DNA of 57,497 bases, filler included, from Sphacelaria rigidula (GCA_964200075.2; 6 parts of 6 records of this genome joined end to end with filler, not necessarily neighbours in it), one strand, 5' to 3'; counted from the first letter of the whole stretch, positions 19,102 through 57,497 are shown. Numbers and translations are program-made. The notes: generated from the sequence alone by a model not told the origin.

Positions 19102-19339
19102 NNNNNNNNNNNNNNNNNNNNNNNNNNNNNNNNNNNNNNNNNNNNTTAATTAATTAANNNNNNNNNNNNNNNNNNNNNNNNNNNNNNNNNNNNNNNNNNN
19201 NATCGTTTGACGCTTTGCCATTTTTTTGTGTACATCTTCACGCCATCGTCCTAGGTCCGAAAACGGGGGTCACTCGAAAAGGATACATTTTCTTTTTTAA
19301 TTTTTCGTTTGTCGTACTTTGAACCCCCCCCCCCCCCCC

Positions 19340-20047: not shown

Positions 20048-20282
20048 ACACCCCACCCCACGCCCCCTCCCCCCACCAGCNNNNNNNNNNACACCCACCA
20101 GCAAACCCCCCTCCCCCCTCCTCCCCCCCCCCCCCCCCCCCACACGTACCCAGCTTGTCTGGACGTTCACCTCTACGCAAGTGTGTTTGTAAACAAAACG
20201 CCAGCCATACATCAACTTGTAAGAAAATATTATTTTCTTCCCTGTTTGAATCCACCCCGGAGTATGAAAGGAAGTACGTTCC

Positions 20283-28634: not shown

Positions 28635-28802
28635 CACAGGCACCGTAGGTAAGGTACCGTACCGAGCGTACCCCCGGTATTTACCGGGGTATCCCATACC
28701 NNNNNNNNNNNNNNNNNNNNNNNNNNNNNNNNNNNNNNNNNNNNTTAATTAATTAANNNNNNNNNNNNNNNNNNNNNNNNNNNNNNNNNNNNNNNNNNNN
28801 CA

Positions 28803-34200: not shown

Positions 34201-36164
34201 ATGCATTCCTGGAGAGCGCAATTGTTGAGGAGATTTTTTGTCTTGCTGGGTGAAGGTTCCTACCGTGCCTCTTCGTTTTTTTGCCGTGTACAGCCCGTGT
34301 GATGCCGATGATTCGCTGCTCTCGTTAGATGTCATTCGTACCGCGCAGCGCAAAACAGTCGGCAGCGGTGTTCATTCTCTTCCTACGACTTTCGATCAAG
34401 CTACCTTGACTGACGATGGTCTGTTTCGCGTGCGTGTTGGCAGTAGAGATGGTTTGTGGATTCCATCGGATAATAGGGGTCTACAGACTCGCTTGATGGT
34501 GTGCGCTCACATGCGGCCGGCTGGTCACCGTGGTGTGGCGTCGACTCTGTTTCGTTTGAAAGAATACTGTGTGTGGCCTCACATGGATTTCCACGTTCGC
34601 GAGTTCGTTCGCCAGTGTTTGCATTATGTAGACACTCGTGCTGGTGCGATTATACCTCGTCCGTATGTCGATACTGTGCATGGTACTGTGCCAGGTGAAG
34701 TTGTTCCCTTTGATTTTTTGTATGTCGGAAGCAGCGGTCCTAAAGGTGCTAATGGTTTGCCTGATGAGGATGGTTTTCGGTACGTTTTGGTCATCATGGA
34801 TAATTGGTCCAATTTGGTGTGGTTGGAGCCGACCGAGGCTTGCACCGCCGAGGTTACGGCTAAGCATTTGCTCCATTGGTGCAAGACTTTGGGGGTGTCG
34901 CGTGTGTGAATTAGTGATACCGCCACGCGCTTCAAGAATAGAGCAACCGCGCAGCTGAGCGCTGCGCTCAAGGTACAACATCAATTTGCTGTTGCGTGTA
35001 CCTCTTGGTCGAATGGTGCTTGTAAACGCATGGTTAAAGACGTTGTTCGTGCGTTGTGATCCATTTTGTCAGAACAAAGACGACCGGTGTCTAAATGGAC
35101 TGATGTTTTACCAGCCGCTCAGTTGGCGCTGAATACTTTTTTTCGTGAACGCTACCGTAACATTTCGTATTATGTGGTGTTTGGGCGTGCGCCGCGTACA
35201 GCGTTTCCGCGCTGGCTTCTGTCACTGGCGGTGAGTGGAACGTCGATGTCATGGATGCTGATACGTTGCGTGACAAGGTTTCAGGTGTGGTTGACGACCA
35301 AGTGCGGTTTTGTAACGAAGTGCAACCTGCTGTCGTGGTGTGTCGCGAAACCTAACGCAAGTTTGCTCAGGGCTAGGCTGTATTGCCCAAGTTTGCAGTT
35401 GGAGATTTCGTCTCGTATGCCCGTGTTCGTAGGCAAGGTGCGACGCCCAAGTATATGTCCACATGGACAGGGCCGTGGCAAGTCGTCGGAGCCGATCACG
35501 CTCACGTGTATTCGGTGCAGAACATTGTTTCGGGCGCCGTACACTCGACCCATGTCGCTCGTCATCACAGCGGAACAGAAATACATATTTCAGCATTCGT
35601 ATACTCAAGGTGAATGTCAGATGAATTCTTTGGTGCACGTCGCTGAGGATGACAATGGTGATGTCATTGTTTTGGTCGATTTGGATGGATGCTGTGCTGA
35701 CGAACGCACGTGGGAGTCTATTCGCAAGATTTATTCTTCTGCACCTGAATGTGTTTTGAAGGAACTGCGTTAACTGCGGTTGACTCGGGCGCTGCAAAGT
35801 AAATTAGCGTCGGAGTATGGTGTTTCTTTGTGATCTGGCGCATGCGATTTTGCCTTGGTTTTTGTTGCTTGTCACGTTCATTTGTCTTGAACTCGCTTTG
35901 AGGGTGCGGTAGCCAAATGATACCAAGCCGTAAGGTTTCAGTATCATCGCATGGATAATTGGAGCAGTAGTGGCAGGGGACAGGGGATCCTGGATTGATG
36001 GCCCTTTTCTGTGTGGCCTCTTGCCGTCTGGCTCGTGATCTGTTGAGGATCACTCCGTGATGATGACAAGTTAGAAGAAAGGACGTGTCGAGCACGAGGC
36101 CAGTGATACTGGAAGAGTCCCTTGCTGAAATTCCTCTTGTTCAGATCGTCTGGCAGAGGCTATA
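31299..36164 (+). mobile_element. Decayed Ty3/Gypsy chromovirus-like LTR retrotransposon with 4-bp TSD ACCC; 3' LTR 35908-36164; 5' LTR truncated (31299-31379)
   Basis: Domain order: Gag knuckle (CYNYGDTGHLIKDC), protease (VILDSGS), RT (WASP, LQGYWQMPL, VWNDDV), RNase H (FPDASD, IFTDH), integrase (H..GHRG, FDFLYVG, VIMDNWS), WTGPW, chromo-like (ERTWES). Termini accc|TGTAGCC and GGCTATA|accc. Many stops and frameshifts. Confidence 0.93.
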
Positions 36165-36510: not shown

Positions 36511-39219
36511 TGATTCACCAGTTATAATGACACTTTCTAGAACAGCCTCCCCACAGAAGTGGCTCGTTTGGGGAAATAAAATCTACACATGGATCGAAAT
36601 GAAAAAAATCTGGGGGCAATGAGCAGTTGGGAATTCGAACGTTTAGCTTCGTTTTCGCCTGTGTCGTCCATATGAGGCGCTTTATGCAGCCTAAAGCCAA
36701 ACATCAGGCGCTACTTGACCATTTTCTTCGCGACAGTTTTGGGCTAGTTTTGGGGAAGGCTAGAGTAGAAAGTGTTCAATACACCTTTCATCAGGTCTGT
36801 TTCAGTTCCTGAACCAGCTGCAGAATAAACACACCGTTGTATGCCAAAAGCAGTTTTAAATACACAATTATTGGACATTTGAGCCGAAACAGTCGATATG
36901 AAAACCGAACCACGCCAAATCGCCGGTGACGGAAACAATATGAGGGGGGAAATGTTCTCTCAGAATAGACTACACCACAAGCGCTCGTGATCCGAATGGA
37001 ACAAGATTCCCCATACGAACCACGAAGAGTTTGAAATAGTTACCCTAGGAGTAATCATATACAAAACCCAACCCAAAAGTGATCCACTGGAATACATGGA
37101 GATGTAGACTCTGGCCAACATTATTACCTGGGTTTAGGTGCAAGACTGCGGAACAAAGTATGTGCGTGTTACGGCTGGTTGATGGATGGCGGGTCTGCGA
37201 GTATGATCGGTGGACCCCGCAAGTATTTCATCTAGATTCTGCTTCTGCTCACTCAGTGGGAGAGAAGCTGGGATACTGCTCTCCGGTATAGTGAGCAGCT
37301 AAGACGAATGTATGAATGACCACAGCTGCTGAAGTCTGCGTGCCCAGAATGGGAGGAGTCTACGTAGCTTTCTGGTCTCGAGTGCATTACTCTATAATAA
37401 CATTCATTGGATGTGCTGAAAGATGGCCGACACATCAAGACAGAGGTCAGTCTGCAGGCCTGACCCGCTTGCAGCAAACATGGCCTAAATTTCTCGGGAT
37501 TGTGTTTTCACGTAAGACCCCAAAACTTCGCGGTTATCGGGATAAAAAAATGTATGACGCATAGTAGTTGTCAATAGCTACCAGTAGGTGAAGAAACGCA
37601 ACCATACTTCGAAGAACTGGTGGTATAGATACTTTTCAAAGATATAGATTTTGGTTTTTCAGGTTATCATCCTCAATGAAAAGCTCGATCCTCAATTCTG
37701 AGAATCGGCCGCTATCACCTGGGGTGCTTGCTGGGGTGGTGAGCGCCGGGTTCGGTGATATTGCTGAGAAGCAAGTGCTGTTGTGGTTGAGTGCTTGTTG
37801 AGGATGAGGAAATACGTTATAATTTGTATTCATGAATGACTTTGAGAACGATTGAAGCTTATTTTGGTTTTATTTGTAGTAATGTGTGGTTAATTGCTAT
37901 AGTTGAGGATTCGGAAATACATTATACCTCGTGTTTATGAATCGCTTTGAGAACGATTAAGGCTTGTTTTGGGGTGGTTTGCAGTCATGTTTGTGGTCAT
38001 GTGTGCGCATGAAGCATGTCGGTTGAGCGAGTATGATCGTATTTCTTGTGCCGAGTGAAATGCTGACGTACACGTGGATGTTTTGTATCTGTGTGTCGTG
38101 CAGCTCTGGTTAGCAGACTTGATGCATGGCGGCTTCTACAAAGAAGGACGTATTGTATGTGCCGGGTGAAATGCTGTCATTCCTCGAACTTTTACACATC
38201 AAGGATTGACCATTTTTTTTAAGATGAAACAGCCGATCATCTATGTTGAGGATGGTGCTTTTCATTTAGGATGAGAACCCGGAGGATTAAAATCTTCGTN
38301 NNNNNNNNNNNNNNNNNNNNNNNNNNNNNNNNNNNNNNNNNNNTTAATTAATTAANNNNNNNNNNNNNNNNNNNNNNNNNNNNNNNNNNNNNNNNNNNNC
38401 GTAGTGAGTGGCGTGTTTCATAGCGTCATCGCCAACCGACGCCAACCCCATCGGGGGTCCGCCCCTACAAAGCCGTGTGTGTGGGGGGGGGGCGGCAAGT
38501 ACCAATGTGTGAGTTTGCGGTCATCTACTTGCCCTTTTCGAATTCGTCCGTTCATGCCAGATGATATTCGTGAAAACTGTACATCTACGAACGTGGGTAG
38601 TATTCCACCAACACGCGAGAACTTTCAGCGCTTTTTCACGTAGTTGGGAGGTATTTTTACTAAGCACCGGTAACTTCCGAACATTTCTCAGCAAGAAATA
38701 TGGCAAAAAAAAAGAACTATACTCTACAGCGAGAGTAATCACATACAAGTATACCGCAAAAAGTAAAGCGTCTCTCTCTCTCTCGAGCAGACTTTGCTAG
38801 CTACCTCCTGTTGATCTGTTCTTTTGAAGACCCATAATAATTTTCGAGTGGTTGCTTGTTCCTATTGATTGTACTCGGCTGACGGATGGCGGAGTATATT
38901 TTGTTGCTGCGTGGTGCGTCTCTCCGGATTCGGGTGTTCAACAAGTACGCTACGGTGTACATTTTGTACATGGTTGGTCATTTTCCCCCTAATAATGATA
39001 GGAAAAAACATCTTCCGCGTCCCCTCGAACGCACGAACGAACAGTTGATGTAGTGCCGGTGATTTGTTTTCCGACACAACCTGCGATGGATGTTTTGATT
39101 CATATATTGTTTGGTGTCCCCTCGTCCTGAAAATTTTATTTTTGAAAGTAGTTGTTGTTCCAAAAAATCTTGCTGGCGTTTCTCAGACATACGTCAACAC
39201 CTCGCGTGTGTTGACGCGG

Positions 39220-39630: not shown

Positions 39631-40815
39631 TTTGGGACACAAGCAATCTTGCAGTAGACCATCACGCCAGATATCACCCGCCGCGTTCACAGATCGAACA
39701 ATGCAAACCCCACACAACTCATTCCCAGATACTTACTCCCTGAACCCTGCAGCATAGAGCGCGAGTTGGACACAGGGATAGATACACATTGCAATGGTCG
39801 CGTGTTATGTATTTCTTGTCGTTGAAAACTTGAGCATCTTATTTCATAGGTCTCAAGTTCACCGTGTGTGGGAAGTTGGGGATTGGAGGTGTTTGCTATA
39901 GCACAGCGGTATAAAAACACGGGAATATCGTAATGAAGGCCGATCGGATTCTTGGGGGGGGGGGGGGGGGGGGGGGGGGAAAAAAGACGAAAGTTTCCAA
40001 AAAAAAATGTAGAGAACACAGAGAGAGAACAGAGCATGACTGTCGGGCGGGTGTGNNNNNNNNNNAGTAGTGGATGGCTGTAGTGATGCGGGGGGCGGGA
40101 GGGGGGGGGTGTGTGAAAAAGTAAGAAAAAAAACATCATTCCCAAAAAATAATGCTGAACCCTCCCAATGACGGAACACAGATTATGCTACAGCATGGTG
40201 CTTCCACAGAAGACTGACTATAGTAGTGCGGGCGCTGTGTCGGTGCCCAAGCTGTAGAGTATGGTTTGGTGGACGTTTTGCGGAGCACACACAGGCTGCT
40301 TGAGGTCGAGAAAAATGATATTTTCGTGGAACCGGGTCAGCTAGAGCAAGCTGCCCGATGACTGGAGGAAAAACCCCCTTCGTGGAAGTTGCGTAGACGA
40401 TCGGAGTCGCACAACCCCAGGAACGTGAGGAGCGTAGTCTTCACAAGTATTGGGATCAGAAACCGCAACCGTCCGCCCCATCAAGCAATTCGTGTAAAAG
40501 TTAGCCCACGGGGGTGCGGCGGTTCAGGGTAGATAAAATGAACGAGGACCCAGCTTCACGTCTTCCCTTGGAGGACTGCGTGTTGCTGGAGCCATAACAT
40601 AGTATGGTTCGTCCGATGGAGCGCATCGTGGTGTGTGGGCTCTAATGTTTCATTGGAGCCCCCCTCCTATCCCTTGCTGTCGAGGTTAATGGTCTCATGA
40701 CTACGGCATGTAATATCATGTGCACTGCTCCCGCGCCCGTCCCGACCCGTCCCTCCCGTCCCACCCCATCCCGTCCCTATTCCCCATCACTGATTGCATG
40801 TTGTCGACGATACAG

Positions 40816-43800
40816 TTTCTTGGGCGCGTACTGCCTACGGTCGCTGAGGCTCTGGATTTGGGGGCTGAATCCGAGCGCGGAGCTCCCGTCAGTCGAAGGT
40901 ATGTGTGTGGTACTGCACAGCTCGAGTGTCGGTCAGACATATTTCTGTTGTACATTGTCTAGACGCCTCACTATATTGTACAGCACAAAGCGTGTTGTAA
41001 ACACTTTTGTGTGATGGAATGCATATTTTTTTCTTGTGTCTGTGTGTGTCCTCTTTACTCGACCACGACTACTTGCGTCTGAGTCATATTCCATTTTGGT
41101 TTCTTCGACTCGGTGAAGCTAGGGCAAAAAAACATTAAACTAAAGCAGCGCGCCATAAGAGAAACAAGCACAGAGGGATTTTTTTTTCGAGGGAGTTCTC
41201 CTTTAATCCCTTCGAAGCGAGAACAGTTGAACACGCTTCGTGATGCCGTCAAACCCCAAACCTCAAGAATTCGACGCTTCAACACTACGCTTTAACATAG
41301 CCTCGCTCCCCATCAGATCCAAATGTTGGAACCCTCTTCAGTTCGAACAATCTTCACCACGGATGTTACACCACGTAGCGTGTAATACTACTACACATTT
41401 TTTCGCGGAAACGCTGGTCTTTCACTCTACCTGTGATGGGCTTGTGCCGGATGTATGACAAGCACGGGCTCACTGGGCAAGGCAAAGGGGCCAGACAATA
41501 GGTGGACAATCCAACCGTAGTCAAATCACCTGGCGGCTGTATCACAACACTCGGGCACTACCCTCGTGTCTTATGTGTCTAGAGGTATAAGAACATTCAC
41601 GCGTAGGTATGATGATATCTCTTCTCGATTACGTAGTCTTGGGTCTTCTTCGTATCCGATTCCTCACGCTCAATCACTCAGTCTCATATCAGACTTCGCT
41701 CGGGGATGTGGGTAGTGGCAGCCGGAGGGCTGTCATCCACGTTACTATCCCTGCTATATACAAGTTCACACTCGTATCTGACCAACTCTAAACAGACCTG
41801 CAGTCTTGAAATAGCCTGGGATGAAATCTATAGCAGGACTCAACGGGTCTCTGAGGCGGCATAACAACAGGCTGATACGCTCCTCTTGACACTAGCCCAC
41901 CCATACAAACCTTCACTGTATCACGGCTGCGAGAATTTTTCCTTAAGAGCAGCGAAAACTAAGGTTTTTCTTTACTCGTGAAGTCGTGAGCGGCTTATAA
42001 GGCACTCCTAAGGAAACACTCTCGTACCCACCTCAAAATAAGGGAAGCATATACTGCTTCGAGGAGCAGAACAAAACTGCTTCGAAAGGCGGGAGCACAA
42101 ACTGCTTCTGCGTGCTATCGACCAACGAAAAAACACAAATTGCTCCGGCGTCCTAGCAAAACAAAGAGGGAAGCCAGGGAGGTGCAACAGGGAGAAGAGC
42201 TTCTACCTGGGGGGTTCCAAAGATTAAACGGCATCATCAGTATGCGACCAACACATGTTGGTCGGAAGCAAGGGAAACAAGATATGAAAATCGGTGATCC
42301 AACGAGATCTAGCGCTAGCCAAAAAGGGGATACTAGAGCTTGAGTAGTCATAGATGGGCTCCTGATAGTCTCCGATCGTCGTCCGGTGTAGGTGGTTCTG
42401 TTGTGGATGGCGTAGAGTCGGGTCCTAGCGATCGGCGCAGGATCAATTGGCCCAAGGTTAGGGACGTCATGCCGTCGTCGGGGAAGATCCCGTCCTGGGC
42501 CACATATAGACCGACAACCCGATGAACAAGTCTGCACACCGACTCCCAGGCATCGTGGAAACAGTGAAGGTGGTTGGGGCAGTGGTATGGGCCGATGTAT
42601 TTGGCAGCGGTGCGTCTCCCAACCATGGGCCAAATGGTCCTGCACATGACAATCGGCGCAGGACCAGATCAACCGCGATATGTCACGTCTATCTATGATC
42701 TTTTGCGGCGTTACGTGCCGCTTATCACTCGGACCCGGACGCCGAAATTGCTGAGGACAGTCAGAATGACGAAGGTTGGACTCCAACGAGTGCAAACTGC
42801 CGTGGGAAGAAGAATAATAGGGGGGACGGCGATGACAACGGTGGAGGAGGCTCACGCCGCCATCATGGTGGAGCACGACCCCCCTCGAGCGGATCCGGAC
42901 CGAAGCGCCCGGGCCGCAATTCCTGCAGCCAGAACCCAAAGAGACCTGACGGCAGTTCTTCTGGATCTTCCGGGAAGTCTCGGAACCGGTCTGGCACAGA
43001 CCTGCCCCCTACGACCAAGAGGCAATACTACACATGCCCTTCGTACGGCTGCCGCAGCATGTGACGTTGCCCCCCTACGAGACCACACGAAGCAGCCCAG
43101 TGCAGGATACATGCGCGATTTTCATACCCGGCATTACGGTAGGAATATCGCCGGAGAGTGCGAAGACCCCATCGCACCGGCATTCGAAATCAGCTGGAGT
43201 TTTCCTTCCAGGCACACAACGCCTGGCAACGAAGAGGGCGCACGACAGCAGGCACAATGCTGGCAGGTGGCGGCATGTTTTTCCAGGAAATGCGGAAACA
43301 GCAGCAACAGCAACAGTGACAGCGACAGCAGCAGCGGACGTTTGTGACACGAGAGCTGGCGAGGCACAGGGAGTGAAATATGGGCGCTCGGGATGCCGAG
43401 TTGGTGTTTTGGCTGCGTGGTGGTGATTTTTAAGCAAATTTCTGTCATGCTAGGGCATACCCTGAGGACTTTTTTTCTTCTTATCCTCACTGTGTGAACG
43501 CCCCCGTGGTGGAGATTCCAGAATGCTCCCGATCGAGGGATTTGGTGCCTCGATTCGTGTTCCCGCGACGGGGCTTAGGACGATCGATCCTATAGACGAA
43601 CTGTACGTGAAAGCTTCGCTTTTTCTTTGCCTTGGTTAGTCAAAGCAGCAAATCTTCGCCAAACCCGACGCGGGGAGACGTCGGAGACCGGAGGAAAGGT
43701 GACGTGTCAATCGAAACCGGTCGCGGAGAAGAGAAGTCGATGTTAGTCGATCAGTACGGCGGGGGTGTGCAGCCTGAGAAAGACGTGTGGACGATACTCG

Positions 43801-46800
43801 GGGATGTGATGGCTTCGGTCCGGGCCGTGAAGAAACTGAGTCTTGCGAAACAAGGGCGTTCATGCTATTTTGTCGGTGCGGTGGCGAAAATACCGCTGCC
43901 GCAGGCGTGATGGAAACAGTCCATCTACTACGGGGCTCACGCCGGCCGGGGCCGAGACAATGACCCAGCTTCCACAACGCCACGATAGCTTTAGTACGGA
44001 ATGTAGAGAAGGAGAGCCTCCCGAAGCGTTGACGCTCTTGTTATGTTGTCGGCGCGGCGGCGGAGCCTTGCTGCCTCGTGCGTGTGGTGACAGGTAAAAG
44101 GCGCCATGGGAACCCCGGCCTGCAGGCGGCGACAGATGACGGAGCGTTAGCGTAGTGGTAGGTTGCGTTTCTTTCCCTGCCCCGCTCTCCGCCGCTGAAG
44201 CTGAGCGGAACTAGACGCTGTTCAACATATCACCGGTTTGAGAGCACGCCGCGCATGGGTATCACAACATCCGCCATACACGTGGCATTCGCCCACGGGC
44301 CCCCGACATCAAGCTCGACCACCCGAAGCTACGAAGTATATCGCCCAGGGTGATATGGAACTCAAGGTCGACTTTCTTCCTCTGTAAAGGACGACCCGGA
44401 TGGGTACCGTAGAGTGCGATGTATCCTACCCATGCTTGATGAGATTTTGGCGCCCGGAAAATGATCATCACCTGGGGTTGGTCCTTGGAGTAGGGGTTGG
44501 TGTGAAATGTACTCCAGCACCTAAAGAGCTGTGCGTCCAGGCGTAATACCAAAACTGGCATGAATATTTTCGCTCGTGAGTGTTTTTCGGGGGCGGGGGT
44601 GAGTTGTAGCGTACAATGGAAGTGAAGGTACCTAGCTAGCGGGAATAGTGGCAGGCGGGTGAAAAGCTTCAACGGTGGCTACAACGGGAAACCGCATCTT
44701 CACGATATCCCCCATGTCTGAGGTGTTGTCAGCATCATGTTCTCGCGGGCATACCCGAGGTATCGATTGCCGAAAATCTACGCATTCCAGCCCATCTGGG
44801 GTTAACGCAGCAAACCCCCGCGAATGCTCCGAGTGGCCGGGAATTCGAAGCTGCATCCGTACGCTACTCTAGCCAACTCACCTTTGACAAAACGAGTGAA
44901 GGTAAAGATTTCGAGACCTCAGATTGCGTTGTTTGCCTCACCATCGGAATCGTTCCGCGTTCTTCAGTTTGCGTGAGAAAGTTTCTGGTTGCGGTGGGTA
45001 GATAGCTATACCATTGACGCTTTCGGTGACTTGAGTGTTGATGGGGTAGGTGGACGGATAGATGGTTCGTGTGCCGTATTGCGTATTTTTGGCACGCGAA
45101 AAATTCGAGACGTGATTCTGCGAAGAAAAAAAATCGAGATTATAATTGTAACCAAGCTACAGACAAGAGAAACGGTTCAGTTTTTCCTGGCCACCTTCCC
45201 TCCTTCACCTCTACTCGGAATGTCCGTAGTCCCAAGAAAAGCGACCTAGCTCTCCCGCGGTGCATGTCTTACAGTTTGGTATCGCGGATTGGGTCATAAC
45301 CAAGCACTCCCGCGCGGCACGTCGAGTGTCGCCGATATTTTTTTTTCTTTCCTGCTCACGTCATCATGGTTTCAATGACAGACGCCAGATACATCCAAGG
45401 GGAATAAACAAGAAAGGAAATCCACACCTGCCGGGATTCGAATCCGCATTTTTCCTCTTTTCAATAAAACTCGACCGACCACCAGGGCGCGGCGGAACTC
45501 TCGTACTGCTGTCTTCTCCTCTCTTGTTGCATAACCTCTCCAGAGATACACGAGACGCGCGTGCTGCACGGCAGGATATACAACAACCACGTAGTTCCGT
45601 CGCAGATTGTATAGACTGTAGACAACAGCGTGCCAGCATGCCAAACTGCATCGTAGTGGTGCACAAGTGATTACTCACATAAATGAAGTAAAATTGTCCT
45701 CTCCACCTTTTCCTTTCGGGGGTGGCGAGGTACGAGCATTCTAGAATGGTTGTGGGTGGAGGGGGGTGTAGTCATGATCTTGCATGCCGTAGTCATGAGG
45801 CCTTTGACCTCGCATCCCTACAAAGTTGGGGCAGAGAACGCAGAGGTTCCACAGGATCAGGTATCGGGTTTACGCTCGAGGCACCGCTACTCGGCTATCC
45901 GCTCCCTCTCTGTTGCGTGCCAAATTCTACGGGAATGATTGTGCCCTTGTCATCACGCGGTAAGTCGCGGTGTTCGATAATTGGGGTTCAATCACGGATC
46001 AAGAGTGTTGTAGAGCATGTCGCGGTAACGTGCACCTCTGAAACCTTCACGTCGTCGTTGATCTCCTTCACTTATGCGGCCGCCACCGCTACGAAGTTGA
46101 CCGTCGAAAGCAAGGCAAGTGCAACTGTCAATTTTTTCTTGACCGTATGTTCGCCCTCTTCATCTTCCGCTATTTTTTATCCCACGAGATATTCAGGATA
46201 CGGGCAGTGTCGCTGATCAAAGGCGTGGAGAGTGGACCCGAGGGTCTGACCCTTATCTCAGACAAGATTCGCGAGGGCCTTCGAGGTGTCGTGCCCGTGA
46301 ACGTGCTGATGGGGGCTAACGTGGCGAACGAGGTGGCGAGGGACGAGCTCTGCGAGTCCACAGTAAGTGAAGGATGAACGGGGGTTCTCCTCAGAGTTAT
46401 TACTCGCAGCCGTCCTGCGAGCTTTCACAGGAGATCGTGTGAAATATTCTCGAAACGGTGGTTTGCTTGTTGTAGGTGCTTTTGGAAGCAGTCTATCTCC
46501 ATCCACTTTTTTTTTTTTTCATGTGGCTTCGATCAACCCCCGGTGTAATTTTGCGGGAGAGAAAAAATTGTTGAGCGGGCCGCAAAAATGGTTGTTGGCA
46601 GTAGCATATATGGATTGATTGAATGGCTGGTTGGTTGATTGATTGAGTGTCTCACATTAACGGATCCCCCAGGTAGTCATGATCCAGCCGTGGTCATTAT
46701 CCACACGACAGACGGTACCCGAGATGAAAAGAAAAGCGGAAACACTCGCCAAAGCAAAAAAGCAAAAAAAGCAAGTAGAAGAGACAAACACAGTATACTA

Positions 46801-47394
46801 AGAAGAATAAAAAACAAAGAAGGAAAAGAACGAAACGAAACATGAAAAACAAGAAGACCCCCTTCACCCCCCGTGACCCCGCTAGCAACGGCAGGTCGCT
46901 GCCGCATGGCTCCGGTGGAAAAGATCTTGCGCAAAAGCACACATTACGAAGAGTCATAATTTCACTGTTGCAGCCGTGACTGCCCACTATTGTATAAACA
47001 CTTGCGGTCATGATCCTTCTGACCTTCCCCTTTCCTCGGGACGACTTCGCAGTCTTGAGGGATCGAACCAGCTCACCGCATGGACGGCACGCTGTCACAT
47101 GACTTCAGATATCTTCAGCGACAACAAGAATACGTGGAAAGTGACACGTGGACGTGGGCGTCGTTTGATTGCTTTAGATCGTCTCAGCGTTCCGAGGGGG
47201 GTCTTCACATCGCATTTCCTCGTAACGCCTTCCTCGTCCTTCTCCCCTCGTGTTCCCTGTTGTTGTCGGTGTCCCAGTTAGGGTTGGCGGATCAAGACTA
47301 CTTGGTCTGCCGAGATGCGGGGCTGTCTGTATCGTCGGACAGCGATGCCGTGACCCTGAAGCGCCTGTTTAACCGTTCTACTTTCCGCGTTACG
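40816..47394 (+). CDS. GPD: Glycerol-3-phosphate dehydrogenase (NAD+), partial: internal exons 40816-40898, 46197-46362, 47278-47394
   Basis: Phase-consistent splicing gives [13 protein letters not shown]...[11 protein letters not shown]...LISDKI...[24 protein letters not shown]...[18 protein letters not shown] and LMGANxAxEVA are GPD1-family motifs. The 5' exons (GxGxxG) and 3' exons (GALKN) are not visible. Confidence 0.9.
41300..42800 (-). mobile_element. 3' fragment of a Gypsy element related to 47999-55706, inverted, in a GPD intron
   Basis: 41830-42115 matches the reverse complement of 54650-54950 (e.g. gcagcgaaaactaaggtttttctt). Purine tract on the minus strand near 41300-41312. Confidence 0.65.
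45200..45490 (-). mobile_element. tRNA-derived SINE, family B, diverged
   Basis: B-box-like GATTCGAATCC on the minus strand, with a body shared with 19340-19614. Confidence 0.65.
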
Positions 47395-47754
47395 GTGAGA
47401 AACCGTGACCCTTTCAGGCCTACGAACTTCGTCCCGAAATGTACTATTCAGCCCGTTCGAAAGGTTGCCCGCTACAGTACGTTGGTGCGTGGCAAATATC
47501 GTGAACGGTTGTAATGTTGTTCTCCTTGTCACGGTTGCTAACTATCCCGTCACAAAGCGGTTATTGAAAAAAGGGTTGGAAATGCCGACGCATATCAACA
47601 CAAGCCACATCCTACAACAATACCCATGCTGGCTTGACTGCCATCGCTACTGCTGCTGCTGCTGCTGCTACTGCTGCTCGCGGGCAGTCAGCGTGTTACT
47701 TCTTCGTCTCCGCCCGTCAGTAGTGTGGGGGCAGCAGACTCTCGATGTGTCATG

Positions 47755-47898
47755 AATGTGTGTGTGTGTGTGTTGTCGTCTCATCTATTCTGGCCGCCGA
47801 TCTACATCTCTCGGTATTTGTGGGCGCACCAGCCGGGGTCACACAGGAGGAAGGTCAACACAGGAGCTTCTTCTTTTTTATTTGTGTTCAGTACCCCA
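47755..47898 (-). mobile_element. SINE family A 3' end, cut by an assembly gap
   Basis: (TG)n tail plus caccagccggggtcacacaggaggaagg. Confidence 0.85.
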
Positions 47899-47998
47899 NN
47901 NNNNNNNNNNNNNNNNNNNNNNNNNNNNNNNNNNNNNNNNNNTTAATTAATTAANNNNNNNNNNNNNNNNNNNNNNNNNNNNNNNNNNNNNNNNNNNN

Positions 47999-50900
47999 CC
48001 CGGCACTATCCAGGAGCGTAACTGACGGCCGTTCATATCGACCCCCGTCTCGAACCTCCACACAATTTTCAACACAGCCCGCAGAGCCCGCGACTAAGAT
48101 TGTCCGCCCGGCCCTCCCGGCACTATGCAGGAGTGCAACTGACGGCCGTTTAAATCGACCCCCGTCTTCATCCCTCCACACACCGCGTAACAGTTGTGTC
48201 ACCCCGCGACTCAGATCTACACCCGGCACTGAACTTGGTCCTTTAGTACCGAGTATAAGTCTGAGGTGTGGGAAGACCAACCGCCAGTCCCTGAGGCGAC
48301 GGCTTCCCTCAGCGACCGCACGCACAGGTAGCAGCGAGCCTTTTTCAGCTGACCCAAGTGTTGCTGATTTGAACCCGACCACATCGGATCATGTAATTCC
48401 CAATCAGTTCGATCGGGCTCCTTCCCCGCGATTTTCAAGACGCACGGACCTACCTTCGGCCAGTTTTACTACCAACCGCCATATCTTCGGCTATGCCCCA
48501 ACAGCCAAGCTTGCCTACGGAAAGCAGCCCACAAGTTTCGCTCCGTCATGCCCCGATGCTGACCCCATCCGCGCAACTGGACGCAGTTATGGTTTCATCC
48601 CCAAATGTTTTGGAAGTTCCCCGACCTTTGTCACGGCGAAAGAGAAAGCCCCGTAAGCATGCCCCCAAGGACGCGCGCGCATCATTACGTACACCTTTTT
48701 CGAGCGGAAATCCTCGACCTCAATCTCTCCAAAATGCGACGACTTTGAGCTCGACGGCTCCATCAAGTATCCCGGAAAAAATAAAATCACATGATTCTGA
48801 TGGCACTACTTCTTCAATCGACGGCTCCAGCCCCGCACATCCTTGATCCCCACTTGCCGGTGATCCTGTCAATCAAAGACGATCATTTACGAGACCGCCA
48901 ATGACCGTGCCACACCTGGAAATAATATACTATCCACCCCCTGCTCTGATGAGACATCTGACCCACCGGCGGATCATCCGCCGTGCGTTTTTGCTGTCAG
49001 CCCCGCTGATCCTGACCAGTATACCTTGCCGGAACACGGTCCGGATCTTGTCGGTGGCAAAGTGTCTGTAGATCCGGCCACTTTCACTACTCGCGTTGCG
49101 ATCCATGCCGGTCCAAACGCTATCACGCCTACGAAATGCGTATCCTTGTTGGACAGCGGCAGCCCGCAAACATTTGTTCGAGAATCAACATGGAAACACA
49201 TGAAATAGACTGGCGCTGCTACTGTAGCTTGCGAAACCACCACCAAACCTCGCGTGTGGGGCAGTTTCGGTGATTCTGCCGCGCCACTGACGACACGAAA
49301 ATCCGTACGTCTCAGTGTGCAGTTCTTTCACAACACCACTCGGTCTGCCAGCCTGGCAGTCTGGGCATACATTGTCCCCGACAGCACAATGCATCACGCC
49401 ATATTATTGGGCAGATATAGCTATATGCGGTTTAATAAACGCACCTACCGCACGCTTCCACCACTAACGCCATATTCCACGCCGCGTGGATAATTCAACC
49501 TCGAGCACTTCGGTACTCTCCACGGCGCCCTAGCTTATCAGAAGAATCCTCAAGCAACCGGAGCTGCTTACCACCTACGAAATAATGGTAGCGTGGGTAT
49601 TACACTCTCCGACGACCCCCAACTTCTTGAAGTTGCACTAGTTCACCGAAATGGCATGCCAGCACTTACGGCCCATTATCTTGCTGAAATGTTACCTCGT
49701 ATTGGCGCACCAGCCGACATAGAACATTTTGTGTCGGCGGGACAACAACCCCTTCCCATTATGGACCATGCTAACTTGGAACCCGGCGATGTTTTAGGAA
49801 TCGCCGCTGCTTACCTGATGCACATCCCACTCGAGACGTGCGTCACAGAGCCTGCCGCCAAACGCCACATCTCCGGCGGAGTCAGTCCATTGTGTCGATG
49901 AACCCTATTTTGACCTTGCCTCCGCGACTACACCCCAGGTCCACACCGTGGATCCTGCCCAGTCAAATTCCGATCCTCCTGCTGAAGTGCTTCAACGCTT
50001 ATTACCAGATGCACGGAATAGTTTCTCGCACATGTGGAACCAACTGTCGCCACACATGCACGACATCAATTAAGACCGTCACGGGCCCGGTTGGAAACCG
50101 GCAGTCATCCAAGAACTCAGTGATGTCCTGCTACAGTACCAAGACCGATTCTCTCGATCCAAGACAGATTTTGGGCATTGCAAAACACTGTCCTTTGAGG
50201 TTACCCTCCAACCCGGTGTCTCGCCGATTTCTTCTCGTCCATACTGTACCAACCCAATCCTTACCGAGAAAGTTAACGCCATCTTGGATGCGTATTTGGG
50301 AGCAGGACTAATACAACATTCGTCCTCTCCTTGGGCCTCGCCACTTGTGGTCGTCCCCAAAAAGGATGGAAACATACGCATAACCGTGAATTATCAACGG
50401 TTGAACCGCGTCACTGTAGTCGGTAAAGCTTCCGATTCCCCGCATTGATGAAGTCTTAGACTCATTGGGCGAAGGGAAAATATTCAGCACCTTCGACCTC
50501 GCTTCTGGGTTTTTTCAGAATGCTATATACCCTGACACAGTCCCACTGACGGCTTTTTGTACCTCGTCCGGACTTTATGAGTAGCTTCGAATGCCACAAG
50601 GCGCCGCCACGGCCCCGGGATGCTTTCAACGCTTAATACAACGCGTCATCGAGGGCCTCGAGCACATCATCATGTACTTGGATGACGCTATCGTTTTCGA
50701 TGCCTCACCTATTGCACATACACGCACTACGAGAATTTCTCTCTCGCCTACGCACGCACGATTTGAAACTGCCTCCATCCAAAGCTCGCCTTGGCGCGAC
50801 TGACTTGGATTTCTTGGGGCATTCCATTTCGCCAGCAGGCCTGCATCCGGATACAAACAAAGTCAAGGCGATGACTGATTTGCCGATGCCAACTAACATT

Positions 50901-53900
50901 TTTCAACTTCGCTCATTGTTGGGTGGGCTATCCTACTACCGCAAATGTTTGCCGAATTTATCGAAACGGATTCGCCCCCTTACTGAGCTACTAAAGAAAG
51001 GAGCCGTGTTTTCTTTCACCACAGAAATGGAGAATATCACCCGCGAATAACTCAAGACGCTTACCGAAAAGCCCGTACTTTGCTTTCCTGATTGGGAGGC
51101 AGTACAAGATGGCTCCCGCCTTTTCCAACTCTATACTGACGCCAGAACAAATGGATTTAGCGGGGTTTTGAATCAACCTCAGGTTGATGGCTCAGTCCGG
51201 CCCATCCTTGATTTCAGCCGCGCTACCCTGCCTGACGGGGCGAATTGGAACCCGCTAGAACTGGAAGGTGGAGTAATCACTTGGACCATTAAGCGCCTTC
51301 GACAATATATGTTTCACGTGCCCTTCGAGATCTATACGGATCACGGAGCACTTGAACAACTCGCCAAGGTTAGTGAACACAACCCTCGTGTACAACGATG
51401 GTTGGAGCTTTTAAGAGCATACCAGAATACCATTAAGCACCGTCCAGGCAGAACCCACGGGAACGCGGATCTTTTTTCCCGCCTACCTCTGCCGCCTACG
51501 GCCGCAGCTTCCAACCCGGCTTGCCGTTTAACGGGACCCGATGAACCCGGACTTTACGCGATCAGACGTTTTTCAACGCCCGTTTACGCCCTCGACCTGC
51601 AATGCCCGGAAACCGGTATGCACATGGGAAGACCTCGCCCTCTACCATATGACGTCGTCTTGGGTGGGTTAAAGCCCACTACCTCCGACTTTGTCAGTAT
51701 TCGCACTTTCGGTACTCGCACGAAACTCTTCGCGGAGACACCTCCAGTCACCCACCTTATCTCCGATAACACGCGCTCCCGGTCTGCCGCCCGCACCACA
51801 CCGAGTGCCCCGCTGCCGCCAATAACACCTTCAACCTTCATGAGCCACCCCGCACAAGTTCCACGGTCCAACACACAAAGCTCCGCGAAAACCTGTGCAC
51901 CGTGCGCCACGCGCCGCGAACAATCTTCGCCGCGCACTGATACAACCCCGTCGCCAAGAACGGCGCCGCAAATATCTCCTACTTCCGAGCTCGGAACTGA
52001 CGACTCGTCTCCTGCTCCCGGGAAATATATTGACGTCGGCATTTCTGCCCCGTCGCCTATTCCCCCGCCGCCTGCCCTACCATGTTTGGTCGGCTCGCCA
52101 GCGGAAGGTCAACTACGCGAGTTTCTCGCCAGCTACTCCCATCGCGATTGGGCTCGCGAACAGAACGCAGAACCGGTATGTCGCGCAGTCATCAGGTACT
52201 TACCACTTGACTGTCCAGTCCCTTTTCCGTCCACACTTCTGGCCCCGGTTGGAACACTGCCACCACCAGTTATTTCTGACGTATACGAGCTCATGCGTAA
52301 AGGCACCCTTTTTACTACGGACGAAGGCGTGCAACTACTCGTACGTCGGCCCACGCCCTTGACAGGCGTAATTGCCGCCTCAACTATGGGACGCACCGCA
52401 CGACTTTTCAATGACGAACCAACGCGCATATATGTGCCATTACTAATGCGTCCCTGGGTCATGAAAGACTGCCACATAAACTTGTCATGCCACCGTGGCG
52501 TCACCCGCACCCCCGCGCTCTTGAAACGCTTCTACTGGTGGGTGGGCATGGAAATTTCAACCCGCTTCTGGATTCGGCGATGCATTAAATGCCAAGCCCG
52601 CAAAACTTCACGACAGACAGTGCGCTGGCCCGTCAATTCTATGGGACTCCCGGCCACCTTGTGTCCTTCGACTACTTTGGCCCTCTACCGACCACAGGTC
52701 GCGGCAACACCTATATTTTACTCTTCACTGACCGCTTTAGCCGCCACGCGTTCATGTACGCGGTAACCGCCGCAGATTTCACTGCCACCGGAACGGCAGA
52801 CATACTGGTCCATGAATACATTAAGCACTACGGCTGCCCAAAGCGACTACTTTCAGACAATAGTCAGCAATTTTGTTCAGACCTCTCTGACGAGCTTTAA
52901 AAGCTCCTGGGCATCCGCAAAATTGCCACGAGCGCCTACCACCCGAACGGTAATGGTGGTACCGAGAGAGTTAATCACACCATGGCTCAGATGCTCCCTA
53001 TGGTTGTCGATGGCCGCCAGAATGACTGGGACCTACAGCTCTCCCACATCATGTTGTCCTACAACAACCCGGTTAATGCCACCACAGGCCTTTCTCCGAA
53101 CGAACTCCATCTTGGACGTTACCCTCGGCTGTCCATCACCGTGTTTGAGCGCCACACGTTCGACGGACACCAGGGAGTGGATCAGGATCAGATATCCTAC
53201 AACGAGCTAACGCATGCACGGCAACACAAAGCGTTCACCCTCGTGCGCGAACAACACGCTATCAATGCCTCGCGCCTAGAGAGATCTAACACTGCTCTAT
53301 ACAACCTCATGCACAAACGCCCCAACTGGAAAGTTGGTGATTGGGTTTGGATCTACAACAGCTTGTCGAACATCCGCCAAGGCACCAGCAAAGCAGCCAA
53401 CGAGACAATTTTAAAGACAAAATTGTCCCTTAATTGGACAGGACCATTCAAGATCCTGACAGTCGGACCATCGTCATCATCACAGGATAATAAACCCGTT
53501 GGTGACAAACTGCTCTATCTCGACTTGCCTCGCGACTTCCAGGGCAAGGACACCAAGCCCCGCGTCTCCATGCACAGATGCAAACCCTGCACGAACCCGC
53601 ATGATACAAGCGACATGCCCAAGTACCTGCCGGCCGGACTCACACAGTATGTTCTCAACAGCTACTCGACCAAGTGCACGCCCTACCACGTTACAACCTA
53701 CGACGTGACGGAACAGCCCTTTCGGTTGGCTGTGTCCTCCATTTCCGGTCACCAGATAATCCGTGGTCGAGGAGGCAAGATCGCTGTCATGTATAAGACA
53801 CGCTGGCATGGTCTTCGGAGAGCGTCTTGGGAACGCGAATCCGACCTGCAATTGCACCCTCGTGCAACCCTCCTTTACTGGACGTAATCCCAACATCAGC

Positions 53901-55706
53901 ATCTTGCTCACAACAAGAAATATCGCAACATGCGCCGTGGCGCAGCAGCCCGCGAATTTCACCGCAATCAGGGACTACGCTTTGTCGCCGATGGTTACGA
54001 ACTTGTACCCTCCAAGACTGGTAAGACGAAGTTCTTCGCGAATCAGCGACTTCTGCCCAAGGGCAGCTACCTTTGGTTCAAAGGTAGCGACAACCTCTGG
54101 TGGTTGGGTCACATACATCGTGCGCTTCATCGATAACCCTGGACCCACACAGCTCAAGCTTCGGCCAGCGCTATACACCACCAGCCCATCTGCACCACGC
54201 GGATACTGGTGTCTCCAGCGCCTCAAGTCCAAAGGGCTTCGCCGCAGTCTCCAGCGCAACATCGACCACACCCAAGACGTCCACGCCCCGCTTTGAACCA
54301 CGCTTCTTTGTCGCGACTGTTGCCCCACCCCCATTTTTTCCCGTAAGCATTGTGTGCCCCCCCTTCTCCACCAGGATCCTCTTCTACGACACCACAACAG
54401 CGCGACCTACATCGGACGACGATCAAGAACTACTGACACGACCGCTATCTACGACTACTGGAGCCATAGTATCCCCTTCATCTGGCGCTCGATCTCGTTG
54501 GATCACCGATTTTCAGGTTTTCGATCTTGCAGTTTTTAGCACCTTTGGATTCCCCCAGGTTGAAGCTCTCCTCCCTGTTGTACCTCCCTGTTTTCCCTCT
54601 TAACTTTTGCTAGGACGCTGAAGCAATTTGTGCTTCTTCGTTGATCGCTAGCACGCCGAAGCAGTTTATGCTTCCGCGTTTTGGAGCAGTTTTTCCTGCT
54701 CCTCGAAGCAGTCTATGCTTCACTTCTTTTGAGGTGTGGGAGTGGGTACAGGATTGTTGGTACGGGCATGTTAGGTACGGGAGTGTTCCTTTAGGTATGC
54801 TTTAGTCGCTCATGACTTTATGCGTGAAGAAAAACCTTAGTTTTCGCTGCTTTGAGGACAAATCCTCGCAGCTGTAATGTAGGTTCGTCTGGGTGGGTTG
54901 GTGTCATGAAGACGCGTATTAGTCTGTTGATGCCGCTTCAGACCCGTTGTCGACTCTGGTCATGGCTTACTTTTGTTTCGGTAGACAAGACTACTGGTCT
55001 GTTCAGAGTTGGTCCGGTACGAATGTGAACCTGTACAAGTACAGGGATGATACCGGCTTTGGTCGCTGTTCTCACGACCAAAGCTCGCACCATCAATCAC
55101 TACCAACTGCTCCCCTCTGCTAGCCAGAAAAAGGAAGTCTAACCATCGGTGAGAGATATTGGCTGGTTTGGGTTGGATTGATTGAGTGGGTACTGGAGTT
55201 AGAATCAAGATAACCAAGAGAAGCGAAGAACCTATTCGCGTGAAACCTCGTCTGATATTTGGGTGCTGAGCAGGTTACACGGTATCTACAAGCTGTAGCG
55301 GCCTGACGGTTGTAAACTTGCCTGTCAAGCTAGTGCCTTGGGTTACAAGCCGTGTCCTTGCATTATACTACCGCTTGCTCCTCTTTCCAAAATTCCCTGC
55401 TCGCATATCTCCATCCTCCATCGATGTATGATGCACACCGACAGATTATAAAGGGAGAAGAGGTGCTGCTTTGTGTACCCAGAGAGACGCAGAAAACCCA
55501 GGGTAGAGAGCGTGTACTGGAATAGACATCATGGCGACTACATTATATTCTACTGTCTGCTAGTTGCGCTAAGTCTATCGGTAACGCCATGATATCCACT
55601 GTGCCATCTCTACAGCAAAGTGAGTTATGACCTACAGACAGGACGGTACACATGACAGTGTAGTATTGTACTGTATATACACGGAAGCCCAAATAATACA
55701 ACAGCA
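47999..55706 (+). mobile_element. Decayed Ty3/Gypsy LTR retrotransposon in a GPD intron; 5' end in gap; putative 3' LTR from 55464 to 55617 or 55706
   Basis: Protease LLDSGS; RT SPWASPLVVVPKKDG, FDLASGFFQ, MPQG, MYLDD; RNase H YTDA and YTDH; integrase CH..HRG..CIKC, FDYFGP, FTDRFSR, SDN, GGTER; WTGPF; chromo-like region. Polypurine tract aaagggagaagagg followed by TGCTG...CAGCA. ~118-bp tandem repeats at 47999-48230. Confidence 0.92.
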
Positions 55707-55980
55707 CAGTGCAGTCGTCTTATTCTCGGTCATCGCTGCGTTCATCCCTTCGTCCATCAGAATTTCCGAAGGATCAGATTTCACCAAAGCCCCGGGAAGC
55801 ATTATCCCTTCCTGCCGGCAGCTGTAAAATTTAAACCTTATTTGACCACCAGGGTGGGCACTTCTGAAGTGAAAATTGTACCGAAGAAGCAAAGAATCCC
55901 CCCTCGGTGTGGCACGTTCTCCGTGTTCTTTCGAACAACAGCGGACGGATGCTGTAGGGCTTCCGTAGTTGACCATCGTT

Positions 55981-56277
55981 GGGCTACGTTTTAGAATGGT
56001 TGACACAATCGTACAAGTATCGTTGCCCTTACCCTTAACCCTAACCCTAACCCCGACCCAACGCACACAGAGAACCCTCGGGCAAGGGCGGAACGTACAT
56101 TCCCTACGCAAAGTGCGGCCTTGGTGGACCCCAAATCGGCGCCTGTGGCACCGACTTCAACGAAAAACGCGTTTTTTGCGAGCACGAGGAGCACACGGGA
56201 CTGTCAGCCCCGATAAATTCCGCTTCTCGTGGTTCGTACTCAATTCGAGAAATATCAATCATTCTAAAACGTAGCCC
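55981..56277. mobile_element. MITE with ~23-bp TIRs and internal (CCCTAA)n telomere-like tract
   Basis: gggctacgttttagaatggttga / tcaatcattctaaaacgtagccc, with cccttacccttaaccctaaccctaacccc at 56026-56054. Confidence 0.85.
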
Positions 56278-56414
56278 GATGCCGGTAAACTGTACTGCAC
56301 AGGCGCCGATTTGGGGTCTACCCAGGCCGATCACGCATACTTTTTCAAGTGAACATTGATGCCGATTCAGTATGCCACCTACCCTCGCGGTCATAGTGTT
56401 AACCCTTAGCCCGT

Positions 56415-56689
56415 GATTCGGGGGGGGGGTGTTGTTGTCCCATTTGTTTTTGGTACTCCATTTTCTTTCTGCGGCGCTTGCCTCTCCTTTTTTATCGCGA
56501 GAGGGCTTCAGCAATCCCTTTCCCTCGTCGACCACCAAGTCGAATTCTGAATTCTGTGTACCCACGACATAGTCGCTCTTCACTGTTGGGCATGGTGTGA
56601 GAAACAACCCCAGATCGCTCCGAGATTTGAACCCACGACCCAGCCGTCAGAAGGCTGCGAGGATACCAACTGAGCCACCGGGGCGACCG
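56415..56689 (-). mobile_element. tRNA-derived SINE, family A, nested in a piggyBac-type mini-MITE
   Basis: Minus-strand A box GGTGGCTCAGTTGG and B box GTTCAAATC. Flanked by ttaacccttag (56399-56409) and by the rest of the MITE (56695-56782). Confidence 0.88.
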
Positions 56690-56848
56690 CCACGGTGCGG
56701 GTAGTCCATCTGGATAACGCATACTTTTTTCAAGTCAAAGTTGATGCCGATTCGGCAGGTGACCTACCCTCGCGGTCTATCGAAAAGAGACCTGAAAAAT
56801 GTTTGTAGATAAGAGTTGATGGGGAACATCATGGAATGTTACAAACTC

Positions 56849-56887
56849 ACACTAACACTAACACTAACACTAACACTAACACTAACC
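56849..56887. repeat. (CACTAA)n telomere-variant hexamer tract within a repeat copy
   Basis: About six tandem acacta/cactaa units. Confidence 0.9.
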
Positions 56888-57497
56888 TCGACCCGAGGCG
56901 CACGAGACCCTCGGGCGAAGAGGGTGCATAGTTTCCCCTAGGCAAGGTGTGCGTTGGCAGACTTCGAATCGTCGCGGCAGGCGCCGATTTCGACAAGAGC
57001 ACGTTCTGGAAGAGCTCGGTCCACTGCGCACCTACCCCAAAACATATTTTTTTCAGAACTTCATCAACTCTAACATCGAGTAGTCATCCCTGTCAACCGT
57101 TGTGTACGAAAATTTCACTAGGTCAACTGCTCTAAGGGTCAACGGGCCTCTTATCATGCTAGAAGCTAACGTGTCGTGTAACAATTTAAAAGGTGAATGT
57201 CACGCCGGTCGAAAACAACGGTCACTCTCAATCCTGTATTCAACTCTCAATCTCACGAAAACATTGTTGTACATGCATATTTTCGAAGTGAAGTGCAGGT
57301 ATAATGTAGCAGCGAGATACTCGCTTGCTTTGCAGACACGAGCGTGAGCTACGGCCCCTCCTGTAACGCCTACAGCTCGTGAAGTGGTAGGTTTATCTCA
57401 GTACATGACACTTTCTACGATAGTCGAGTCATCCTACGATAAGGGGGGGGTTATTTTGGGCCATTTGTTGCTCGAAATTTCGAGTCAGATCGTCGTT

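Follow-up and report, generated by a model that had tools for sequence, protein, structure and literature searches.

Sphacelaria rigidula DNA (GCA_964200075.2) was analysed as a stretch of 57,497 nucleotides, hereafter the window, the last piece of which (47999-57497) holds a degenerate copy of a Ty3/gypsy retrotransposon. Beyond its GPY/F-type motif, the integrase of this element runs into a region (53700-54296) that a first-pass annotation had read as a chromo-like domain followed by a PWWP- or Tudor-like module. Comparison with relatives and structure prediction support the presence on one integrase of both a divergent chromodomain and a predicted Tudor-like barrel, a combination that would be new relative to the known single-reader fusions. 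The polyprotein (pol) encoded by the element follows the order protease, reverse transcriptase (RT), RNase H, long Pro/Ser-rich spacer, integrase, chromodomain and Tudor-like tail. This is the domain order of Ty3/gypsy elements, as the window pol is colinear with the 1848-residue polyprotein P0158, residues 24-1834 of which align to 49023-54266 in tblastn searches; residues 250-2148 of P0168 similarly align to 48960-54233, and the Pfam domains RT_RNaseH, Integrase_H2C2 and rve were matched on window open reading frames (ORFs). The family is highly repeated, with 5113-5899 pieces matched per run among the contigs of three DNA sequencing runs. Several frameshifts upstream of the tail and two in-frame stops interrupt the window pol, and this copy is dead. 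At position 52900, within the first of these stops, nearly all of the depth in the three DNA runs carries another letter, which yields a sense codon in other copies.

The peptide strings quoted in the first-pass annotation were all found in the sequence (Table 1). The integrase ORF (52901-53887) and the ORF that follows it (53888-54136) share one frame, which past an Arg-rich segment reaches LPKGSYLWFKGSDNLWWLG at 54053-54109. The two ORFs are parted by a TAA at 53885-53887, absent from the first-pass annotation, that stands between the chromo-like domain and the module behind it. The frameshift proposed near 54112 was confirmed and corresponds to a deletion of about 32 bases at ~54110, where the window copy is missing approximately 11 residues found in relatives. 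Contigs of sequencing runs X1, X3 and X6, the last possibly an RNA run, contain 30-33 additional letters exactly at 54108-54111, so that the deletion is absent from those copies; X1, X2 and X3 present loose ends at 54110/54111.

To establish what follows the integrase in intact elements, we compared the read-through translation of the window, with stops written as X, against 1.84 billion representative sequences by exhaustive phmmer search. The best stretch spans the TAA (query residue 433) in 15 of the 150 matches listed, and 11 of these 15 extend to residues 491-512. The intact relative P0005 has a tail to which both window translations align in local phmmer comparisons, P0002 (53888-54133) at E 8.6e-18 and P0003 (54102-54293) at E 4.2e-16, over successive parts of it on either side of the frameshift. 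Besides P0013, the relative used for structural modelling, 12 close and three distant proteins give a single unbroken alignment to P0013 from the chromodomain through the barrel, with merely 2-46 residues remaining C-terminal of the aligned stretch. Six of these proteins are polyproteins of 1618-2170 amino acids (aa) in which integrase, chromodomain and tail are unbroken at the C-terminus, and P0158 presents uninterrupted protease, RT, RNase H, integrase, chromodomain and tail. The expectation that the tail would be in frame with the integrase in intact copies is therefore borne out in these polyproteins. A search with the tail only, among proteins of 1016-3234 aa, returned seven sequences, all of them with RT and integrase Pfam domains, and a word-indexed search with the chromodomain and tail region among proteins of 904-2580 aa returned no match. 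Tail identity is 45-73% for close relatives and about 20% for distant ones, a metagenome group (P0041, P0043, P0044, P0050, P0119, P0160 and others) with tails of 150-165 aa, and profile comparison links the two groups (hhalign probability 81.9%, E 1.1e-5, 90 columns). Two further proteins present the tail in the absence of RT or integrase: P0162 (310 aa) behind half a NADAR domain, and P0164 (612 aa) behind a long, low-complexity, Ser/Arg-rich N-terminus. Both are probably deletion derivatives or chimeric gene models, although domesticated copies are not excluded.

The chromo-like domain proposed behind the integrase is supported by the predicted fold. The AlphaFold2 model of P0013 (273 aa; 28-row alignment) has mean predicted local distance difference test (pLDDT) values of 81-97 in ten-residue blocks over residues 71-250. 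In this model, residues 72-130 form a three-stranded sheet with a C-terminal helix (strands 78-88, 94-102 and 109-112; helix 113-128). Behind it come a second, long helix (139-156), a further strand and helix that are both short, and finally five strands. The sheet and helix superpose on the chromodomains of CDY1 (6v41; Z 7.1, root-mean-square deviation [rmsd] 1.5 Å, 55 residues aligned), Chp1 (3g7l; Z 7.1) and HP1 (1kna; Z 6.7, rmsd 1.1 Å, 50 residues aligned). At the sequence level the domain is divergent. The Pfam Chromo model (PF00385) has no match on the window ORF at E<=1, and close relatives score 15.7-17.1 bits or show no match, against a gathering cut-off of 25.1 bits, whereas all five distant relatives scanned exceed this cut-off (28.6-36.1 bits).

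When the full 273-aa model was submitted to Foldseek, the chromodomain dominated the VIA-align follow-up, and the tail was therefore folded alone (AlphaFold2; 153 aa, 19 rows). The resulting model, with block-mean pLDDT of 89-97 over residues 31-130, contains a five-stranded SH3-type barrel of the expected size (~55-60 residues), with strands at 68-72, 78-86, 92-97, 103-107 and 124-129 (block-mean pLDDT 92-97). Foldseek ranks the Tudor domains of PHF19, PHF1 and MTF2 highest (probability 0.97-1.00, E 0.014-0.09), with TM-scores of 0.59-0.64 on single-domain chains, rmsd of 1.9-2.8 Å and identities of 27-32% for PHF1 and PHF19 and 22% for MTF2; Spindlin, TDRD3, PHF20L1, Agenet and two PWWP entries come next. 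VIA-align places the complete PHF1 (4hcz_A; Z 6.2, 58/58 residues) and PHF19 (6wau_D; Z 6.1, 55/55 residues) domains on the model, alongside Spindlin1 (Z 6.6), TDRD3 (Z 6.3) and the PWWP entry 6kco (Z 6.2), all scores being tied within one Z unit. When 48,161 chains were searched independently of Foldseek, Tudor, Agenet, SAWADEE, PWWP, chromo-barrel or Spindlin structures made up, by title, about 36 of the 50 rows listed. Furthermore, aromatic residues are conserved at tail position 71 (16 of 18 rows), W78 (17 of 18) and F97 (17 of 18). Together, these results support the interpretation of the tail as conserved coding sequence for a predicted Tudor-like barrel, placed in the Royal family as a whole rather than in any one subfamily and located directly behind the chromodomain, and hence the tandem of Royal-family modules put forward in the first-pass annotation, for which AlphaFold and Foldseek had been suggested as a check.

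The more specific assignment of the second module to the PWWP family was not supported. The PWWP model (PF00855) has no match on window ORFs at E<=1. At the start of beta2, where P-W-W-P or a near variant would be expected, the window and the majority of close relatives have L-W-W-L, and distant relatives usually have x-W-C-E; only the first Trp is nearly invariant. Behind the barrel, the model predicts one short helix (133-140; block-mean pLDDT 57) and no confident C-terminal helix bundle. Judged by profile hidden Markov model (HMM) and motif, then, the tail is not a PWWP domain.

Table 1. Features of the element and of its surroundings in the window (positions counted from the first letter of the window).
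Feature	Position	Strand	Remarks
Ty3/gypsy pol, degenerate	48960..54296	+	tblastn to P0158, P0168; Pfam domains
In-frame TAA in integrase core	52898..52900	+	private to window copy
WTGPF (GPY/F-type) motif, integrase C-terminal region	53435..53449	+	conserved in alignment A2
Divergent chromodomain, three strands and helix (VSSISGHQ ... SWERESDL ... LLYWT)	53732..53884	+	aligns to P0013 residues 78-128
VSSISGHQ	53732-53755	+	integrase frame
SWERESDL	53825-53848	+	integrase frame
In-frame TAA, chromodomain/tail boundary	53885..53887	+	residue present here in relatives
Tail linker: Arg-rich helix (53915-53968), then short strand and helix (53996-54031)	53888..54052	+	mapped from P0013 models; conserved in A3
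Predicted Tudor-like barrel, beta1 and beta2 (LPKGSYLWFKGSDNLWWLG), truncated by deletion	54053..54113	+	
LPKGSYLWF	54053-54079	+	integrase frame
LWWLGHI	54095-54115	+	integrase frame
Frame-shifting deletion of ~32 bases	54108..54113	+	end of beta2 and beta2-beta3 loop lost
Predicted barrel beta3 to beta5 (54114-54224) and C-terminal tail, shifted frame (YIVRFIDNPG ... GYWCLQ)	54114..54296	+	ORF 53760-54296; stop TGA 54294-54296
YIVRFIDNPG	54114-54143	+	next frame
Repeat, probable 3' long terminal repeat	54383..55048	+	70% identical to 42416-41747 (minus)
Synthetic spacers of 100 bases, N44-TTAATTAATTAA-N44	9502-9601, 19102-19201, 28701-28800, 38300-38399, 47899-47998		
Synthetic spacer between the element's piece and the preceding ~9.5-kb piece	47899..47998	.	

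On this evidence, we regard as probable, on balance, that 53700-54296 is the 3' pol end of a dead copy of a high-copy Ty3/gypsy family whose integrase-fused tandem reader would dock on nucleosomes and bias insertion. Several observations weigh against this view. The proposed function is inferred from fold resemblance, and the models are those of P0013, a relative about 50% identical to the window, rather than of the broken window copy itself. All fold scores are middling, none of them reaching a Foldseek E of 1e-3 or a Z of 8, and the alignment tool cautions that Z values under 8 may reflect merely a common arrangement; a barrel that is not a reader, the TraI translocation-signal domain, is tied at the top of the VIA-align results (Z 7.0). 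No Pfam Tudor or PWWP match was obtained on the 19 tails at E<=1, and sequence searches of the PDB with the A1 and A3 profiles and with P0013 returned only matches at E 0.16-1.5, the weak leads being the ASAP1 SH3 domain, Agenet proteins and the MPP8 chromodomain. Agenet itself matches two of the 19 tails, its best match (E 0.0098) falling short of the Pfam cut-off, and ESM Atlas scores (0.75-0.78), lower than what shuffled proteins attain in one case out of three, were not used. For the chromodomain, whose cage usually comprises three aromatic residues, HMMER alignment to MPP8, weak at its start, seems to retain only the central one, the Trp of W-K-G, and the next presumed cage position is Leu.

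These observations bear differently on the alternatives. That the text behind the chromodomain might be a non-coding 3' untranslated region with a chance likeness to PWWP could be argued from the in-frame stop and frameshift of the window and from the failure of Pfam to find anything there; the strong homology to uninterrupted polyprotein C-termini, the conservation across distant groups and the confident fold leave this reading practically no credence, and it is refuted by the TAA-spanning matches, the P0005 tail matches and the unbroken polyproteins. A more serious alternative is an SH3-type barrel that binds nucleic acid, or at any rate not histones, that resembles the integrase C-terminal domain or DNA-binding PWWP domains, and that aids capture of target DNA or cDNA. 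The TraI barrel, the similarly scoring PWWP of 6kco, which is bound to single-stranded DNA (Z 6.2), the KOW/Spt5 barrels recovered in a wide structure search, the Arg-rich helix ahead of the barrel and the missing Tudor HMM match all fit such a module. Its structural neighbours, however, are mostly readers of histones or methyl marks, the PHF1 and PHF19 Tudors are highest in sequence identity with the whole domain covered, conservation extends to the aromatic positions that typify reader barrels, and a chromodomain adjoins, all of which render a nucleic-acid-binding role unlikely. Still less probable, in our assessment, is a barrel that binds methyl-arginine or another host-protein motif in the manner of TDRD3 or SMN and tethers the integrase through a host factor: the best matches do include the Tudors of TDRD3 and SMN (Z 5.3-6.3, rmsd 1.6-2.4), but identity to these is 13-15%, lower than the 22-32% for PHF1/PHF19, and this mechanism comes without a candidate partner.

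A different question is whether the tail is already known. The nearest named relatives of the element are proteins of Ectocarpus sp. CCAP 1310/34, and the portion of the Ectocarpus study available to us describes four Gypsy lineages, three with a putative C-terminal chromodomain, one of which (Gypsy-12_Ec32) also has an N-terminal NADAR domain, and a fourth, Gypsy-10_Ec32, with a C-terminal Tudor domain that is called the first in any transposable element (PMC12477816, Genome Biol 2025). As far as that portion extends, the chromodomain lineages are placed outside the chromoviruses, the supplementary table gives reader domains only for Gypsy-10 (TUDOR) and ECR-1 (CHROMO), and chromodomain or Tudor fusions are described with no mention of both in one integrase (PMC12477816). 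The tail could accordingly be the published Tudor domain of Gypsy-10_Ec32, leaving only another species as new. Both are Tudor-type readers, predicted in the case of the present tail, at the C-terminus of a stramenopile Gypsy Pol, and the 636-bp long terminal repeats (LTRs) given for Gypsy-10 in the accessible text (PMC12477816) are close in length to the probable LTR of ~670 bp seen here. In contrast, NADAR domains (139-153 bits) stand at the N-terminus of the tail-bearing proteins P0166, P0167 and P0168, which come from Ectocarpus and other sources, and the same text assigns NADAR to a Gypsy-12_Ec32-like lineage, with Gypsy-10 forming a separate one for which, by description only, neither chromodomain nor NADAR is mentioned (PMC12477816). 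Identity with the Gypsy-10 Tudor is thus possible, but we hold it to be rather doubtful. Because of the NADAR domain in these tail-bearing proteins, the family looks like the NADAR/chromodomain lineage of Ectocarpus Gypsy elements, in so far as that lineage is described in the available text. P0166, with NADAR, RT, RNase H, integrase and tail, fits this description; the comparison, again by description only, differs in that the putative chromodomain of Gypsy-12_Ec32 is reported with no mention of a following Tudor-like barrel, and in that the window copy and P0158 show no NADAR domain. In the window, neither the ORFs upstream of the protease nor tblastn revealed a NADAR match, the 5' part there being short and degenerate.

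Relative to better-known systems, the predicted architecture combines familiar elements in an unfamiliar arrangement. Chromodomain-bearing Ty3/gypsy elements include Tf1, MAGGY and plant Tekay/CRM. Like these elements, the family described here has a histone-reader domain on the integrase C-terminus behind the GPY/F motif, with tethering to marked chromatin as its expected role; unlike them, it has a second, Tudor-like barrel after the chromodomain, and its chromodomain has diverged beyond the reach of the Pfam cut-off, both in the window and in close relatives. The PWWP domain of LEDGF/p75 tethers lentiviral integrase to H3K36me3 chromatin. The functional analogy with this system, in line with the reader-steered integration suggested in the first-pass annotation, holds in that a Royal-family reader would steer integration to marked chromatin, but LEDGF/p75 is a host protein acting in trans with a true PWWP domain, whereas the present barrel is a predicted reader fused in cis that lacks the PWWP profile match and motif. 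Among host readers, the PHF1, PHF19 and MTF2 Tudors are the best Foldseek matches to the tail barrel, with the whole domain aligned for PHF1 and PHF19 (22-32% identity, rmsd 1.9-2.7 Å). The tail differs from them in belonging to a retroelement protein rather than a host chromatin factor, in giving no significant sequence-profile match, and in having an extra helix with connector at its N-terminal end and a long loop between beta4 and beta5. No report of a chromodomain-Tudor or chromodomain-PWWP tandem on a retrotransposon integrase was found in the literature searched, which covered sources other than subscription journals.

Under the favoured reading, intact members of the family would encode, in a single frame after the integrase, the divergent chromodomain, an Arg-rich helix with a small strand-helix connector, the five-stranded Tudor-like (SH3-type) barrel and a short conserved C-terminal tail. 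The tandem reader would travel with the integrase-cDNA complex and dock it on nucleosomes of a particular modification state, thereby biasing insertion to marked chromatin, as chromodomains do for chromoviruses. In the window copy, this module would have been inactivated by the TAA at 53885 and the ~32-base deletion at ~54110, beside the other lesions of pol. The usual ligands of chromodomains are H3K9me and H3K27me3. Docking on chromatin is proposed by reference to chromodomain-directed integration in other elements such as MAGGY, the chromodomain of which targets H3K9me regions according to the part of a preprint available to us (bioRxiv 10.1101/2021.11.30.470311). In Ectocarpus, by the accessible portion of the published account, H3K9me and H3K27me3 are absent and repeats are marked by H3K79me2 and H4K20me3 (PMC12477816), which makes a non-canonical ligand plausible. 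The resemblance of the barrel to PHF1-type Tudors hints at H3K36me3, the mark with which the PHF1, PHF19 and MTF2 Tudor structure entries were solved. A more elaborate and decidedly tentative version of this proposal is that chromodomain and Tudor form a bivalent, cis-fused reader of a combinatorial histone state (H3K36me3, or H4K20me3/H3K79me2), in which the chromodomain may have lost its usual ligand and the Tudor may have taken over or refined targeting.

The window consists of six pieces of ~9.5 kb joined by synthetic spacers (N44-TTAATTAATTAA-N44; Table 1), with two more runs of ten N at 20081-20090 and 40056-40065, so that features in separate pieces need not be adjacent in the genome. 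The boundary at 47999 truncates the element, which occupies the last piece, at its 5' end, and no 5' LTR was found in 43000-49300 either by direct-repeat search or by sensitive blastn. The claim that this copy resides in an intron of a glycerol-3-phosphate dehydrogenase gene must consequently be set aside. The exon in question (ORF 46042-46377; NAD+-dependent enzyme, Pfam NAD_Gly3P_dh_N, E 1.9e-08) belongs to the preceding piece, across the spacer at 47899-47998, and no 5' LTR precedes that spacer. Its N-terminal domain, at 46201-46368 (+), is the sole host-gene fragment identified near the element.

Downstream of the pol stop, the repeat at 54383-55048 is probably the 3' LTR (~670 bp), as judged from sequence, and the depth of sequencing-run contigs drops about ten-fold past ~55033. 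Its 70% identical counterpart on the minus strand (41747-42416) has no adjoining pol-like sequence by tblastn and may represent a related family as a solo LTR. The sequence at 54340-54493, which leads from the pol stop to the more conserved portion of the probable 3' LTR, is hypervariable: depth is four- to five-fold lower here, and many contigs carry indels or skip 101-151 bases; other copies also present a tandem duplication of ~41 bases at 54539-54585. Two copies of a 52-nucleotide direct repeat (47999-48050 and 48116-48167), 90% identical and 117 nucleotides apart, open the piece that holds the element, ahead of the protease region. Within pol, the Pro/Ser/Thr-rich spacer between RNase H and the integrase zinc finger spans ~340 residues (51420-52440; residues ~125-460 of ORF 51051-52766), unusually long for a Ty3/gypsy pol, and is of matching length in P0158 (residues 825-1199). 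No second copy of the element's pol was detected by tblastn elsewhere in the window. In the fourth piece, 32734-33453 and 33935-34243 (+) weakly resemble the RT and RNase H of the polyproteins aligned to the element (21-32% identity) and represent a remnant of a separate, unrelated retroelement.

Integrase-fused reader domains provide the clearest natural cases of retroelements picking their landing sites by chromatin state, and a tandem of chromodomain and Tudor-like barrel would widen the known repertoire, made up of single readers, by a possible module with two. If the bivalent interpretation is true, the family would possess a natural two-reader integration-targeting module so far undescribed for any retroelement. 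The tail is conserved from close to distant relatives and yet missed by the Pfam Tudor and PWWP models, and the results suggest that the Ectocarpus Gypsy lineage described with a putative chromodomain may hold an overlooked second domain. Since Ectocarpus is reported to lack H3K9me and H3K27me3, the usual chromodomain ligands, the insertion pattern of this family would be informative, offering a direct route to the marks that guide integration in brown algae.

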